Of a stretch of DNA of 55,064 bases, positions 1-7,957 are shown one piece after another (the stretch's first letter is position 1; each line of letters starts with the position of its first letter). The translations under genes and the position numbers were made by a program. Source of the DNA: Gammaproteobacteria bacterium (GTDB lineage: Bacteria > Pseudomonadota > Gammaproteobacteria > Chromatiales > Chromatiaceae); the NCBI GenBank assembly GCA_020445315.1, contig JAGRGW010000009.1, forward strand, positions 1 through 55,064. Direction: 5' to 3'. The notes beneath the pieces are model-generated. The model was not told where the DNA came from and ran no database searches. It saw nothing but the letters and a program-made list of their open reading frames with translations.

Positions 1-220
1 TTATATGCGCCCGTAGCTCAGCTGGGTGAGGCGCGGTCGCCGTAAGGCGATGACGAGCCACTTAACGTGGCTCGGCAAGTAACGAACGCCCGATCCGGCA
101 GGATTGGGCCGGGGAAGCCGCGCAGCGGCGTGAGTACCGCCCTTGTCGTTCGCAGAACGACCCGCACGCCGCAACGGCGTTGAAATGACAAACAGTTATA
201 TGCGCCCGTAGCTCAGCTGG
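1..220 (+). repeat. Partial tRNA-Arg 5'-half duplicate with structured inserts; 25-bp direct repeat (1-25 = 196-220)
   Basis: ttatatgcgcccgtagctcagctgg occurs at 1-25 and 196-220. gagtaccgccct occurs at 132-143 and 224-235. Six short hairpins lie between 37 and 180. The left edge is cut by the window. Confidence 0.85.
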
Positions 221-278
221 ATAGAGTACCGCCCTCCGAAGGCGGGGGTCACAGGTTCGAATCCTGTCGGGCGCGCCA
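202..278 (+). tRNA. argX: tRNA-Arg(CCG)
   Basis: 77-nt cloverleaf: acceptor stem GCGCCCG/CGGGCGC, D-arm GCTC..GAGT, anticodon arm CCGCC-CT-CCG-AA-GGCGG, T-loop GGTTCGAATCC, encoded CCA. Confidence 0.97.
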
Positions 279-506: not shown

Positions 507-630
507 TGTCGGTCAACTTAAAAAAACCAGCATGTCAGCGCCCTCATCAGGTGAATTGGTCGAAATCCACGATCGGCAAGACCGGTCGAGAAACCAGGCC
601 TTGGGCGTCCGCAAAAAAAGCCATGTAGCC

Positions 631-2193
631 ATGAAAAACAAATCGACACACGACCGAGTTGCCCACGCGCGGTTGCTCATCGTCATGGCGCTGTCTCTGG
701 CGGCAAGTCTTCCAGCCCAGGCGGCCTTCAACCCGGCAGTGGCGAAAAAACTGGACGTAGATGTGCCACTCGACTACCTGTCAGCGGATCTCAACGACGA
801 CGGGGCCAGCGATCTTGTGGTGGCCGGCGACACCGCAAGCGGATCACGCCTTAACATCTTGATCGGCGACAGTGTTGGCGAGCTCAAGATCGAGCACGAG
901 GAACTGTTCACCGCCCCGTTCGGGTCCGTCACCCTCGGCGACGTCAACAACGACGGCACCCCCGACCTGCTCGTGCACCTGGCCAAGTCGCCGGGGCAGT
1001 CCGACAGTGTGTGCGGTACCTCGGGAGACAACGTCGTGCTGCTGGGCAGCGTGTTTGAAGGCCTGCCGCAATACACCCTCGGCTCCTGTTTCGATGGCGA
1101 CTACGTACAGGCTTTCGATGCCAATGCAGACGGCAACGACGATCTTCTGGTGGACAGCCGGGTCCTGTTGTCGAATGCCGACGGCACCTTCACGCAATCG
1201 CAAGACTTCGGCACCACCACCGAGCTGCAGATTTCCGACGTCAACGGCGATGGGATCCCGGACGTGTACGTCGACGCAATGCAGGCTTTCTGCGGCAATG
1301 GCGACGGCACCTTCCTCGCCTGCGACAGCATCAACTCGGTGATCGGTGGCCTTTTGGACATGAATGGCGACGACGCTTCGGATGTAGTCACCGCCATCCC
1401 CACCGCCTACGTACAGCAGGCCTACACCGTGACCCTGTTCAACTTCTGCGGTGGCGGCCGCACCTTCTACAAGTCCGGATCCGGGCGAGGTAGCGGGCGC
1501 TATCGCCCCTGGCGACCGGCCAGCGGGGTCGCCTGCCGAGGTACCGCGACACGCTACCGCGACATCGTCACCCGTACCGCGATTGAAGTCACGCTAAACC
1601 TGGGCCAGGGCGTGACCAGCACCCTGGTCAGCCAGGATGTCGACGGGATCATCCAATCGATCCACGTGCAGGACATCAACGGCGACGGCGTAATGGATGT
1701 CCTCGCGAGCCTCGGCGGCACGTCGCTGATGCTGTTTCGCGGCAAGGGCGACGGCAGCCTCGGCACACCGGAACCCATCAGTTCCACGCACGGCGGAAGC
1801 GCGCTGTTCATGGACGACTGGAACGGCGACGGTCTCCCCGACATTGGCTGGTTCTACGTGCCACCGGACACCGACCCGGAACTTCAGGTCATGTTCCAGG
1901 TGTTGGCCGACAGTGACGCCGACGGCCTGCGCGACGACGATGAAACCTACCTGTACGGCACCGACCCCAACCTGCCCGACAGCGACGGCGACGGCATGGA
2001 CGACAACTACGAGGTAAGCAACGGTCTCGACCCTCGGAGCGACGACACCGCGCTGGACAAGGACCTCGACGGCTTCAGCAACCTGCAGGAACACGACGCC
2101 GGCACCGATCCTTCCGATCCGGCCTCGCACCCCGGTTTATCACGCGCGGCCGCATTGATCCTGTGGACCATCCGGCCGTTGCTGCTCGAGTAG
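631..2193 (+). CDS. Secreted FG-GAP/VCBS-repeat protein with C-terminal thrombospondin type 3-like acidic repeats
   Basis: Signal peptide ending LPAQA; repeated DxNxDGxxD motifs (DLNDDGASD, DVNNDGTPD, DINGDGVMD, DWNGDGLPD); DSDADG/DSDGDG/GTDP C-terminal repeats. The ORF is open from 532; ATG 631 was chosen because it fits the signal peptide. Confidence 0.8.
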   Translation: MKNKSTHDRVAHARLLIVMALSLAASLPAQAAFNPAVAKKLDVDVPLDYLSADLNDDGASDLVVAGDTASGSRLNILIGDSVGELKIEHEELFTAPFGSVTLGDVNNDGTPDLLVHLAKSPGQSDSVCGTSGDNVVLLGSVFEGLPQYTLGSCFDGDYVQAFDANADGNDDLLVDSRVLLSNADGTFTQSQDFGTTTELQISDVNGDGIPDVYVDAMQAFCGNGDGTFLACDSINSVIGGLLDMNGDDASDVVTAIPTAYVQQAYTVTLFNFCGGGRTFYKSGSGRGSGRYRPWRPASGVACRGTATRYRDIVTRTAIEVTLNLGQGVTSTLVSQDVDGIIQSIHVQDINGDGVMDVLASLGGTSLMLFRGKGDGSLGTPEPISSTHGGSALFMDDWNGDGLPDIGWFYVPPDTDPELQVMFQVLADSDADGLRDDDETYLYGTDPNLPDSDGDGMDDNYEVSNGLDPRSDDTALDKDLDGFSNLQEHDAGTDPSDPASHPGLSRAAALILWTIRPLLLE

Positions 2194-2587: not shown

Positions 2588-3247
2588 TCAGCCGAACGAG
2601 CCCATGTCACCCGGATAGCTGACCTCTTCCAGTTTTCCGGTATCCACATCGTAGATAAAACCACGCACGGTTACCGCATCCGATCCCTCTGTCGGAATCC
2701 ACGGATGGTTCATGATGTTCGAGATCGATCGCCGTACGTCCCAACTCAGCCGCTCCATGTTCTTGTCGTCCCGCGGTGAGTCCAGCGGCTCGAGCGGTCC
2801 GCGGAAGGCATGGAAAGCGGAAGGCGTGGCCGAAGACGTCTTGCACGACACGAATTCACGGCTGGTTGCCTTGCCCAGCAGTTCCTCGGCTGCCGGATCG
2901 CCTTCCAGGCCTGCCTTCAACAGGTCGTCGGTGAAGGCGAGCATCCCGCATCGCGTGTGATGGATCAGGATGATCTCGTTGGTGTTCAGCAGGTGGTGCG
3001 AAATGATCAGGCAACGGATGGCATCGTCGGTGACCACGCCACCGGCATTCCTGATGATGTGCGCCTCACCGGTCTGCAGGCCCAGCAGGTCCTCGACATC
3101 GATGCGGGCGTCCATGCACGCGACAACGGCCACCCGCTTCGCCGGCTGAATGGCCTGCTGGCCGGGGTGGGTTGGCTTGTGTACGGCTTCGCCGTTCGCA
3201 TACAACTTGTTGTTTTCGAGAAACTTGTCAGTCATTGAATCGCTCAT
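2588..3247 (-). CDS. Beta-class carbonic anhydrase
   Basis: Zn-ligand motifs CMDAR and HTRC, plus HIIRNAGG and C-terminal [11 protein letters not shown]; AG-rich RBS upstream. Confidence 0.9.
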
Positions 3248-4611: not shown

Positions 4612-4869
4612 TCACTCGTCCGTGACAGTGAGCTTGGTGAACTCGGCCAGCGAAAGCAAACCGTCGTCGTTGTCATCGCCGTCTTCGAAACTGCTGGCCA
4701 AGTCGGGCTCGGCCTCGGCCTCGTCCTTCGACAACATGCCATCACCATCGGTGTCGTACGACTTGAACATTTCGGCCGCGACAGTCGGGTCGACGGCGGC
4801 AATACCATTGCCAAAGGCCAGCGAGGCCGTGAGCAAGACAGTCAGCGGAATAAGCGTTTTCATTTCCAT
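4612..4869 (-). CDS. Small secreted two-EF-hand protein
   Basis: Signal peptide; EF loops DTDGDGMLSKDE and DDNDDGLLSLAE; GGGGA RBS before ATG 4869. Confidence 0.8.
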   Translation of the reverse strand: MEMKTLIPLTVLLTASLAFGNGIAAVDPTVAAEMFKSYDTDGDGMLSKDEAEAEPDLASSFEDGDDNDDGLLSLAEFTKLTVTDE

Positions 4870-5451
4870 GGTCCCCCAAAAAAGTGTAAGCAACCAGATG
4901 CCTGCACGTAATTCCGTGGGATCTATCGCATCGAGGCTGGCAAGGTCTTGGGGGCCATTGACCCAGTCTGAAGGGAGCTAACCGGAGCGGTGCAGCGATG
5001 CAAATATATGCTTTCCCGAAGGCAATACAAGGGGGTCGAAAAAATATTTTTCGTGCGGGCCGAGGGGGCTCGGCAAGATCGATAAGACGACGTAAAAACA
5101 GGCAAATCCGAGCAACAGCGCTATCCACGAATCAACCACTTTCGGCGCCGCAACGCCGCCGTGATTCTCAAGAACCCAAGGGTTCTCGACACGCTTGGCC
5201 GAGGTACCCGCGGGGCATCGATCCGGCATGCGGAAGATGCCCGGCCAGGCCGCGGCAGGGCATGCCTGCCGGTTCCCACACCGTCATCGTGGCCGGCCGC
5301 GCATTGAACGATTCGTTCAGTGGGACGCGCGCCAGCCCCCGGATTGAACGATCCGTTTTCCGACTGCGCCACTGGGGAATGCCGTTCCACCCCGGTTTCG
5401 GTGCCAGGCCGGTTACGGTAAGCCATTGACGCAACGGTGTTTGCGGTTGCG

Positions 5452-5575: not shown

Positions 5576-7957
5576 ATGAAACGGCTGTTATTCACACTCA
5601 TGCTGCTGGCCGCGTGGAGCGGCCTGCAGGCCGCGGTGACCAAGACCGCGCCATCCGGCAAGACCGGGTGTCTGGCGTGCCACGAAGGTATCGAGGACAT
5701 TCGCGACGACAACGCGATCATGATGCTGCAGATCAAGGCCATCGGCGCGGCCAATGGCGACCCGGAAGGCTGCGTTACCTGTCACGGCGGCGATCCCAAG
5801 GCGACAGACTATGAAAACGCGCACAAGGGCTCACCCAGCGGTCTGAAGAATGGCAATGGCCCGAAGGCCTTCTACCCCGACCCGGGCTCGGTGTGGATCG
5901 CCGAACACAGCTGTGGCCAGTGCCACATCAATTACGCGTACCGCGTCGAGCGTTCGCTGATGAACACCGAGGCGGGCAAAATCCAGGGCAACCTGCACAC
6001 CTGGGGCATCGCCGAGGTCCAGGACCACAAGGTGCCGTGGGGCAACTATGACGTCAAGGATACCGACGGCGCGGTGCCGCAGACCGGCACGCCCGAGTAC
6101 AAGGAATACATGAAGGCGATGATGGCCGCGCACAAGGAGCAGTTCCCGACCGAACTGACCCAGGTCCCGCAGCCGACCGTCGAAGAGATCGAGAACGATC
6201 CGAAGCTGGCCGGCTTCACCTACCAGCGCCAGCAGTGCCAGCGCTGCCATGTCGGCATCAAGGGTCGCGAGAAGCGCGGTGACTACCGCGGCATGGGCTG
6301 CTCGTCCTGCCACATTCCGTATGGCAACGAGGGCTACTACGAGGGCAAGGACCCGACCATCAACAAGGAAGAGCGCGGTCACATGTTGACCCACAAGATC
6401 GCCGGTACCCGCAAGACGGTGGTCAAGCACAACGACGTCGAGTTCTCTGGCATCCCGGTCGAGACCTGTAACTCCTGCCACAACCGTGGCAAGCGTATCG
6501 GCGTAACCTACCAGGGTCTGATGGAGTTCCCGTACGGCTCGCCTTACAACGCCGACGGCGACAAGCAGCCGAAGCTACATACCAAGAAGTACCTGTTCAT
6601 CTCCGACGACCTGCATCACCAGATCGAGTCGCGACCGGAGAACCCGAAAGGCGGCCTGCTGTGCCAGGACTGCCACACGACGATCGACATGCACGGCGAC
6701 GGCAACATCTTCGGTACGACGCTGGCGCAGGTCGAGACCGAGTGCCAGGACTGCCACGGCACGACCGACCAGTTCCCATGGGAACTGCCGCTCGGCTACT
6801 CGGAGGAGTTCGCCAAGGAACTGCCGCAGACCGAGCGTGGTCTGGGCGAAGGCCTGCTGATGGAGACCATGGCGTTCGCCACGACCTACGACAAGCGTGA
6901 CGGCTACCTGCTGACCGCACGCGGCAACCCGTATGGCAACGTGGTCAAGGACGGCAAGAAGGTCATCATGCATTCGGCCACCGGCAACGACTTCGAAGTG
7001 CCGCTGCTGAAACAGCTGAAGATCGACAACACCTGGAAGTCGCCCGACGCCATGGTCGCAATGAGCAGCGTCGAGAAGCACAACGAGAGCCTCGAGTGCT
7101 ACGCCTGCCATGCCTCCTGGGTACCGCAGTGCTATGGCTGCCACGTGCAGGTCAACTACGGCAAGGACAAGTCGGGCAAGCCGTACAGCGACACCGACTG
7201 GCTGGCCGGTGGCTCGATCCGTGACGAAAGCGGCCAGACCGCAGAGTCGCCGCTGGGCACGCATGGCCTGAAGTCCCCGGGCAAGGTATTCGAGACCCGT
7301 TCGTACCTGCGTTGGGAAGAGCCGGTCCTGGGTATCAACGGCGAAGGTCGCGTGACCCCGCTGATGCCGGGCTGCCAGATCGTGTATACCGTGTTCGACC
7401 GCAACAACAAGGTCGTCGCCCTGAACCAGCTCGGCAAGTCGCTCGACGAGCAGAAAGAGCTGGGCCAGGAACGCGTGCCCGATGCGATCGACATGGCACC
7501 GGTGCAGCCGCACTCGGCACAGCGCAAGGCCCGTACCTGCGAGTCCTGCCACAACAACCCGAAGGCACTGGGCTACGGTATCTCCGGCGGCGTGTTCCAG
7601 ACGCGCTACCCGGTCGACATCGTCGAGGACCTGATCGACCAGAAGACCGGACAGGTCATTCCGGGTCGTCACCAGATCCAGATCCCGAAGATCGCCGACC
7701 TGGACTACGACTGGTCGACCATCATCAAGGATGGCCAGCAGACCCAGACCGTCGGTACCCACTGGCCGCTGTCGCGCTCGCTGCCGAAAGCGATGCGTGA
7801 CGGTATGGAGCGGACCGGCCTGTGCCTCGGTTGTCATCGCGAGATGACCAACACGGAGCTGTGGGCCAAGGTGTCGACCCCGGGTACGCTGAGTGACCCC
7901 GAGCACATCGAGATGCTCAACCGGTTGCTGAAGACGTACGCCGCGTCGAAGAAGTAA
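5576..7957 (+). CDS. Large secreted multiheme cytochrome c (12 CxxCH motifs)
   Basis: AGGAG RBS and signal peptide MKRLLFTL..LQA. Heme motifs: CLACH, CVTCH, CGQCH, CQRCH, CSSCH, CNSCH, CQDCH x2, CYACH, CYGCH, CESCH, CLGCH. Confidence 0.92.
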   Translation: MKRLLFTLMLLAAWSGLQAAVTKTAPSGKTGCLACHEGIEDIRDDNAIMMLQIKAIGAANGDPEGCVTCHGGDPKATDYENAHKGSPSGLKNGNGPKAFYPDPGSVWIAEHSCGQCHINYAYRVERSLMNTEAGKIQGNLHTWGIAEVQDHKVPWGNYDVKDTDGAVPQTGTPEYKEYMKAMMAAHKEQFPTELTQVPQPTVEEIENDPKLAGFTYQRQQCQRCHVGIKGREKRGDYRGMGCSSCHIPYGNEGYYEGKDPTINKEERGHMLTHKIAGTRKTVVKHNDVEFSGIPVETCNSCHNRGKRIGVTYQGLMEFPYGSPYNADGDKQPKLHTKKYLFISDDLHHQIESRPENPKGGLLCQDCHTTIDMHGDGNIFGTTLAQVETECQDCHGTTDQFPWELPLGYSEEFAKELPQTERGLGEGLLMETMAFATTYDKRDGYLLTARGNPYGNVVKDGKKVIMHSATGNDFEVPLLKQLKIDNTWKSPDAMVAMSSVEKHNESLECYACHASWVPQCYGCHVQVNYGKDKSGKPYSDTDWLAGGSIRDESGQTAESPLGTHGLKSPGKVFETRSYLRWEEPVLGINGEGRVTPLMPGCQIVYTVFDRNNKVVALNQLGKSLDEQKELGQERVPDAIDMAPVQPHSAQRKARTCESCHNNPKALGYGISGGVFQTRYPVDIVEDLIDQKTGQVIPGRHQIQIPKIADLDYDWSTIIKDGQQTQTVGTHWPLSRSLPKAMRDGMERTGLCLGCHREMTNTELWAKVSTPGTLSDPEHIEMLNRLLKTYAASKK

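Follow-up and report, generated by a model that had tools for sequence, protein, structure and literature searches.

Why is a tRNA gene preceded by an incomplete copy of itself, in which the tRNA sequence is interrupted by a structured insert and then resumes in the correct order? This arrangement stands at the left edge of the window (the whole stretch of DNA analysed, 55,064 nt). As the first-pass annotation of this DNA had recorded, window positions 196-220 repeat positions 1-25 over 25 identical bases and diverge afterwards, and positions 224-235 are repeated exactly at 132-143, past the insert. The copy is followed by a single intact tRNA-Arg(CCG) gene at 202-278, found by both ARAGORN and Rfam, which is the sole gene for that anticodon at the locus.

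Tandem units ahead of the tRNA-Arg(CCG) gene

The leader of the tRNA-Arg(CCG) gene contains a tandem array, of which bases 7-201 are one 195-bp unit; all parts described here are on the forward strand. The window opens at the contig edge with the end of the previous unit's leader (TTATAT, 1-6), which runs on into another contig, C392, whose terminal bases equal window 1-25. The segment we call U (7-25) is a copy of tRNA-Arg nucleotides 1-19, identical to 202-220, and finishes at the GG of the D-loop. Next comes an 87-bp core, E1 (26-112; match to model R1 at 24-112, E = 6.8e-5), composed of GTGAG, a stem with two inner hairpins, GAACG, a second stem and CCGG, its base being closed by tandem GA mismatches. 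The core is followed by a 3' hairpin with a C(GCA)G triloop, HP4 (113-131), and E1 and HP4 together take the place of three target bases (ATA), a replacement of three bases that is likewise seen at 5S, tmRNA and tRNA-Ile2 sites. The target sequence then resumes as segment X (132-143), which corresponds to tRNA nucleotides 22-33 by its identity to 224-235 and tracks the adjacent gene. Two more predicted hairpins (145-161 and 165-181) occupy 145-181, the first of which covaries in the alignment of relatives, and comparison with relatives identifies the A-rich tail (182-201) as the leader of the intact tRNA. The proposal that the D-stem could still close around the insert (16-19 with 132-135) holds insofar as the pairing is possible; it is absent from the predicted folds and broken in one relative's copy.

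The last 102 bases of C392, the contig on the left, match window 119-220 with one mismatch, and at least one further, partial unit therefore lies left of the window; the resulting copy number is a minimum, since the overlapping bases are themselves repeat sequence. The order of the locus is a NicO-like gene, a promoter-like site (TTGAGA-17-GACAAT; L021, 4933-4961), the partial unit, at least one full unit and the tRNA, and across this and related loci one to three units sit between promoter and tRNA. Reads on the left contig do not cover 4942-4994, which is evidence neither way. A contig from a public run that may be the source sample (X1) spans window 1-133 with zero differences, and a 186-base contig from a separate study spans window 7-191 with 15 differences. 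Misassembly at the contig edge is rejected by these public contigs, by the overlap with C392, and by five relatives that carry a full unit, in four of them far from contig ends. Directly 3' of the tRNA, after a lower-GC stretch, window 532-2193 encodes a secreted FG-GAP repeat protein, which may be an island remnant.

We viewed the tRNA-Arg(CCG) leader in 18 of 23 same-genus genomes. Full units, one or two of the window type, are present in five (G004, G017, G019, G022 and G023), a partial unit in three (G009, G010 and G011), and another subtype with an identical junction in two (G012 and G016). Relatives without the unit also exist: seven of the 18 have an empty site consisting of a bare promoter and tRNA, and in one the leader is of unrelated sequence. 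In an alignment of seven window-type units, 99.6% of 273 cells were paired and 12 of 39 pairs had changed on both sides (slid controls, 23-41%). The two alternatives of the first-pass annotation, a tandem-array unit or a small non-autonomous element, are both supported: homologous inserts, empty sites and covariation are all found. In G023, a second copy of the tRNA-Arg 3' half lies ~3.5 kb downstream (L023; G023:C8:123694-123742) and is likely the far end of an integrated element.

A family of hairpin elements inserted after GG

The combination of a tRNA 5' end with GTGA occurs in at least 120 species-level genomes. We fetched loci from 80 of these, nearly all Gammaproteobacteria (2/80 repeat sequences already met among the relatives), and a tRNA-Arg start (CCG, ACG, TCG, TCT or CCT) was found no more than 450 bases downstream in 70/80. 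Cultured Alteromonas, Alcanivorax and Gilvimarinus species are among the carriers. Similar inserts at other tRNA fragments, which the first-pass annotation had anticipated, are found in many gammaproteobacterial genomes, and the common core reads GTGAR, variable stem, YGAACG, second stem, GGCYGG. Model R1 matches 13/25 relatives and 9/150 genomes of the phylum, and a strict subtype pattern matches 13/251 genomes and 0 controls; a loose pattern matches 87/401 genomes, a count inflated by numerous chance matches and unsuitable as an estimate of prevalence. Two sets of viral contigs yielded 27 and 2 pattern matches, of which 4 and 1 are convincing E1 copies, and a plasmid BLAST with one E1 as query returned no full-length match. 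No Rfam family covers E1 at the window or at 32 other loci.

Stem covariation, already seen in the window-type units, is also present in the E1 cores: among 41 single-hairpin cores (most E1 loci come from patterns biased towards intact copies, and related genomes do not count as independent), 83.8% of cells are paired as compared with 59.3% when shuffled, the covariation score is 0.563 as compared with 0.153, and 19 of 23 pairs have changed on both sides (slid controls, 30-39%). The base pair beside the tandem GA has changed from T-A to C-G in several copies. Self-correction of palindromes in DNA can yield paired changes without selection.

The element had been described as tRNA-targeting, which proved too narrow. 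Using R1 and target-blind patterns, we found E1 after GG in the D-loops of tRNA-Arg, Gly, Trp, Ile2, Ser, Thr and Phe; after GG on the antisense strand of the T-loops of tRNAs for Pro, Leu, Ile, Gln, Arg and Ser; and after GG at 5S rRNA ends, in the tmRNA T-loop, in TPP riboswitches and in the loops of other repeats. In protein genes it likewise follows GG, 55 bases into urtE and at the stop codons of nusG and xerD-like genes (names read from the sequence). With patterns that do not require it, GG was directly 5' of GTGAG in 20/21 and 16/17 matches. Copies occur on either strand relative to the target gene, many of them antisense, and those with HP4 stand in place of three target bases (ATA, TTA, AGA or TTC).

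In essential RNA genes, E1 is accompanied by a short duplication that leaves one intact copy, and at stop codons and in the interiors of other repeats it stands without duplication. Within a metagenome sample, the upstream stretch is repeated after the element in 22 of 63 distinct cores, and ~20 others, judged by eye, sit in ATGG or AGGG loops of repeats with no duplication. The rule for E1 is insertion after GG, with duplication only where the gene must survive. The window's own genome holds a second E1 (L162; G000:C300:415-640), 55 bases into a urtE-like ABC ATPase gene whose start is duplicated; the two 18-codon starts differ at five codons, all silently, and in six relatives the urtE starts differ by 1-5 silent and 0-7 coding changes. 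G012 has four tandem units.

Several loci combine E1 with other repeats. One of them, L031 of a relative, carries an RtT match after tRNA-Tyr (RF00391, 49.6 bits; 2922-3060), an E1 unit ahead of tRNA-Trp (4701-4862) and, at 5862-6230, a nusG stop with an E1 and, behind it, some four tandem repeats of 82 bases. Copies of a TPP riboswitch stand in tandem with E1 between them in L159, L160 and L161, the upstream copies scoring under the intact one. A different hairpin element occupies the T-loop of the tRNA-Arg copy beside the D-loop E1 unit in L087 and L102. Genome G173 (L187, L194, L204 and L206-L214) has 26 R1 matches, and those viewed are nested in CCCTCTCCC palindromic repeats; one lies just 5' of a small ORF whose sequence resembles a DUF559 nuclease.

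A single E1 subtype occurs at several different tRNAs of one genome, among 19 matches there, which fits spread within that genome. Copies inside a genome have diverged from each other, so no recent jump was caught, and neither a circle nor a free form of E1 was seen. We conclude that E1 is a real, widespread and apparently undescribed non-autonomous hairpin element, which at this locus sits in a tRNA D-loop with a gene-saving duplication. A search of the accessible literature gave no account of a D-loop, GG-targeting family of this kind.

The resumed segment and the origin of the unit

The 195-bp unit is probably a dead fragment of tRNA-Arg(CCG), split after the D-loop GG by a gene-less hairpin element and standing in tandem before the intact gene; the element likely moves as a folded single strand of DNA, using an enzyme that comes from another source. 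A candidate nicking-joining enzyme, HUH- or GIY-YIG-like, would join the element's 5' end, GTGAG, to a GG that the target exposes in a loop. At a tRNA, E1, HP4, X, the following hairpins, the leader and U would travel together as a cassette that pairs with the target via U and X, with X either re-copied from the local gene or selected to match it, and recombination would then grow and erode the array.

An X of at least 7 bases matching the unit's own tRNA from position 22 is present in 35/70 units, its usual length being 7-12 bases, and an X of at least 8 bases in 27/70, as compared with a mean of 2.4 and a maximum of 8 in 2000 permutations. Scoring from the element side superseded an earlier pair test (21/21) that was circular in that a partial X match was required; an earlier anchor rule, which misplaced the slot, had given a weak signal (2.59 vs 1.73). 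Placed from the element side, the slot is scorable in 34 of 71 units. The window's unit is among the 37 unscored, of which 13 belong to the AGGA-loop subtype, 13 have no parsed core, 10 lack a slot and 1 contains an N. In the scorable units the match to the own tRNA averages 3.88 of 5 bases, as compared with 2.01 when permuted (maximum 2.71 in 5000; n = 34), and 4 or 5 of the 5 variable X bases match in 26/34. When units were paired by nearest body, in disjoint pairs, X followed the own tRNA in 15/17; within the eight closest of them it did so at 28 of 32 positions. For example, G188 has near-identical bodies whose X differs between two isoacceptors, and its third copy, located at 5S, has a 5S-derived X; in G192 the same pattern is seen for two tRNAs. 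Since X differs between near-identical bodies, it would be re-derived at each new site, or only matching cassettes would insert.

The limits of U bear on the cassette as well. Identity between the first and last U ends no more than 3 bases upstream of tRNA +1 in 36/70 loci, as expected were a second leader brought with the cassette; in 29/70 the similarity extends at least 10 bases upstream of +1, and plain local duplication fits too.

It is unlikely, in our judgement, that only the core (E1 and HP4) is mobile, that it struck one of two tRNA copies, and that X is a leftover of deletions with no targeting role. Such an account draws on a prophage contig in which a full-length tRNA-like gene is split by E1 ten bases from its 5' end (L455:2993-3146), on a unit that retains the entire anticodon arm (L041), on targets that resume fully inside other repeats, and on 13 units of another subtype that have no X; X may be the remnant of a decayed duplicate. 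Against it, the hairpin 3' of X is common to bodies at different isoacceptors while X itself varies, and an X of mostly 7-12 bases is not what repeated random deletion would favour.

The favoured reading also supposes movement as DNA. The forward strand folds beyond shuffled sequences both as RNA (1-195; z = -2.79, 0/200) and as DNA (1-201; z = -3.86, 0/200), and folding of the reverse strand is weaker (z = -1.66 and -2.16, respectively). The units contain 316 perfect hairpins, 140 of which have loops of three bases; C(GNA)G triloops number 49 as compared with 5 for their reverse complement, and GNRA and UNCG tetraloops are rarer (18 and 3). Minihairpins of the C(GNA)G type are extra stable in DNA. 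This triloop bias, together with the many antisense copies, favours a folded single DNA strand, a better fit than a tRNA-mimic RNA, and E1 likely moves in that form.

The mobilising enzyme had been expected left of the window or elsewhere, and neither place yielded one. On the left, C392 encodes CcmF, CcmH, CycH, a DsrC-like protein and a NicO-like transporter, and at the ~90 loci tested no nuclease, recombinase or RT is tied to E1. The 142 ORFs flanking 79 loci (excluding two ORFs of L088, a chance match without a tRNA) included 4 phage integrases and single DDE, rve, HNH and AHH matches and no GIY-YIG, Y1 or RT, in what is a partial test because many of these ORFs are spurious. In five carrier genomes, no E1 was found at 12 GIY-YIG loci, and the best R1 match at 13 Y1 (PF01797) loci (E = 0.046) is not an E1; by eye, none of the convincing copies in viral contigs is tied to a nuclease. 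Genome G012 (L320-L333) carries four small GIY-YIG genes of an Ssn-type family, two of them with internal stops, flanked by SRM-like palindromes.

A bolder possibility, which we consider doubtful, is a DNA-guided mini-element: a single-stranded cassette with the core looped out, whose U and rewritable X arms, the latter a slot flanked by constant hairpins, would pair with the target across the GG, and which would be retargeted from gene to gene, rebuilding each gene it hits, possibly finishing via the PriA restart machinery instead of a dedicated transposase. Such an element would generate a whole class of tRNA- and rRNA-linked repeats.

We hold it to be improbable that the core itself serves as a primosome assembly site in the chromosome, loading PriA onto exposed single strands, with spread and flank duplication arising by replication restart and no dedicated transposase. 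The likeness is nevertheless measurable: a ColE1 stretch ~25 bases from a DnaA box ranks 1-3 of 658 windows for unit likeness (z = 4.5), a descriptor fixed beforehand matches the hairpin region of phiX174 ori(-) (2298-2362), and a post hoc descriptor matches 24 E1 copies and the ColE1 site with 0 reversed-control matches in 3.1 Mb. However, R1 matches neither the ColE1 nor the phiX174 site, alignment places the phiX174 windows only at ranks 190 and 347 of 532, the core in 4/4 distant plasmid homologues has no upstream GTGAG and a different fold, and a primosome site alone does not explain the fixed insertion junction. The 30-70 kb stretch of the F plasmid gave 7 weak descriptor matches, which are no help to the idea.

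Retention of the unit for an RNA function in the tRNA precursor, as a processed small RNA, a CsrA/Rsm sponge or a folding aid, seems very improbable. The array lies between a promoter-like site and the tRNA, so its transcription is likely, although none of the RNA runs listed contains the stretch. ANGGANG hairpins occur in 13/66 units, and in vitro binding of CsrA is documented for three E. coli TLRs (PMC8144298). Yet the window's unit has no ANGGANG loops, the unit is missing from 7/18 relatives viewed, many E1 copies are antisense to the gene, and the loops are dominated by the DNA-stable triloop type. A tRNA intron, or a part of a permuted or trans-spliced tRNA, is close to refuted: the tRNA sequence does resume in order past the insert, but the copy is without anticodon, T arm and 3' acceptor strand and stands next to an intact gene, no Rfam intron model (group I, group II or tRNA intron) matches, and clean excision would not restore the D-loop because the insert replaces three bases.

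Comparison with known systems

E1 repeats have practical consequences: assemblies are interrupted by them at tRNA genes, and spurious tRNA fragments and gene starts result. The unusual part is the target-matching X slot which, if it does guide insertion, would make E1 a compact programmable DNA insertion system.

The attL/attR fragments of integrative elements are also partial tRNA copies that adjoin an intact gene, have a fixed junction and often carry a foreign leader (PMC9897764). The unit differs from these in the ~175 bp between the copies, in a target that resumes within the unit, and in its many non-tRNA targets, and no integrase gene lies between or beside the window's tRNA fragments.

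The ColE1 n'-pas/ssiA and phiX174 sites have words around GAACGAC and a tandem-GA triloop hairpin in common with E1. The former is placed ~25 bases from a DnaA box (PMC3640518, PMC3167613), and the phiX174 primosome assembly site (10.64898/2026.07.25.740675, PMC5778457) matches E1 by the loose descriptor only. Membership among primosome sites failed, the likeness being at word level and the plasmid core lacking E1's 5' end and base stem in 4/4 plasmids. The core of the ColE1 ssiA region (L215:1298-1365; L456-L459) is found in conserved form in at least 5000 plasmids, IncX1 and IncX4 among them, and many plasmid matches begin exactly at the GTGAG or ACCG word common to E1 and ColE1.

TwoAYGGAY (RF01731, in its extended Pseudomonadota form) is likewise a dispersed multi-hairpin repeat of variable copy number and suspected mobility (10.64898/2026.09.22.753630; PMC2864571), and the accessible text of 10.64898/2026.09.22.753630 mentions neither tRNA targeting nor a GG junction. 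Some E1 subtypes have AYGGAY-like loops, and E1 is often inserted inside such loops; there is no AYGGAY loop in 26-195, and RF01731 is unmatched in the window and at the 12 loci tested, so E1 was not assigned to that family. The accessible text of PMC4129139 and 10.1101/2024.07.17.603846 holds nothing specific to E1.

Closer in manner are REP/BIME-RAYT and SRM/NTS-Ssn, which are gene-less palindromes in tandem arrays, handled as single-stranded DNA by an enzyme acting in trans (PMC11893778). E1 differs from both in its motif, and no RAYT or Ssn gene is flanked by E1 in the five carrier genomes: there is no E1-flanked Y1 gene among the 13 PF01797 loci, and the small GIY-YIG genes of G012 are flanked by the other palindrome.

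Closest in layout are the TLRs of E. coli, first described in 1978 and of a function still not known in 2021 (PMC8144298). Like these (RtT RF00391, RrA/B/F), E1 units are 100-200 bp long, stand singly or several in tandem in tRNA and rRNA operons, and place ~19 bp of a gene end beside a hairpin insert (PMC8144298); as compared with the one to five units per tRNA or rRNA operon by which TLRs are defined, one to three are found here. In TLRs the repeated 18-19 bp come from the 3' end of the gene upstream (PMC8144298), whereas the 19 bp repeated in the window's unit come from the 5' end of the gene downstream, with the insert in the D-loop and the array upstream. Antisense E1 loci at tRNA-Ile, tRNA-Gln, tRNA-Pro and 5S show the TLR-type 3'-end geometry, and one TLR has a tandem-GA hairpin word in common with HP4. 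This word is all that is shared at sequence level: R1 has no match in MG1655 and a best E of 0.31 at four TLR loci, and homology to E. coli TLRs or RF00391 thus failed by model search. E1 is by test a member of neither the TLRs nor the REP-type repeats and works like one or the other, displaying the TLR layout in both directions and at non-tRNA targets. With a common layout and one insertion rule, the origin of TLRs becomes a testable question of mobility.
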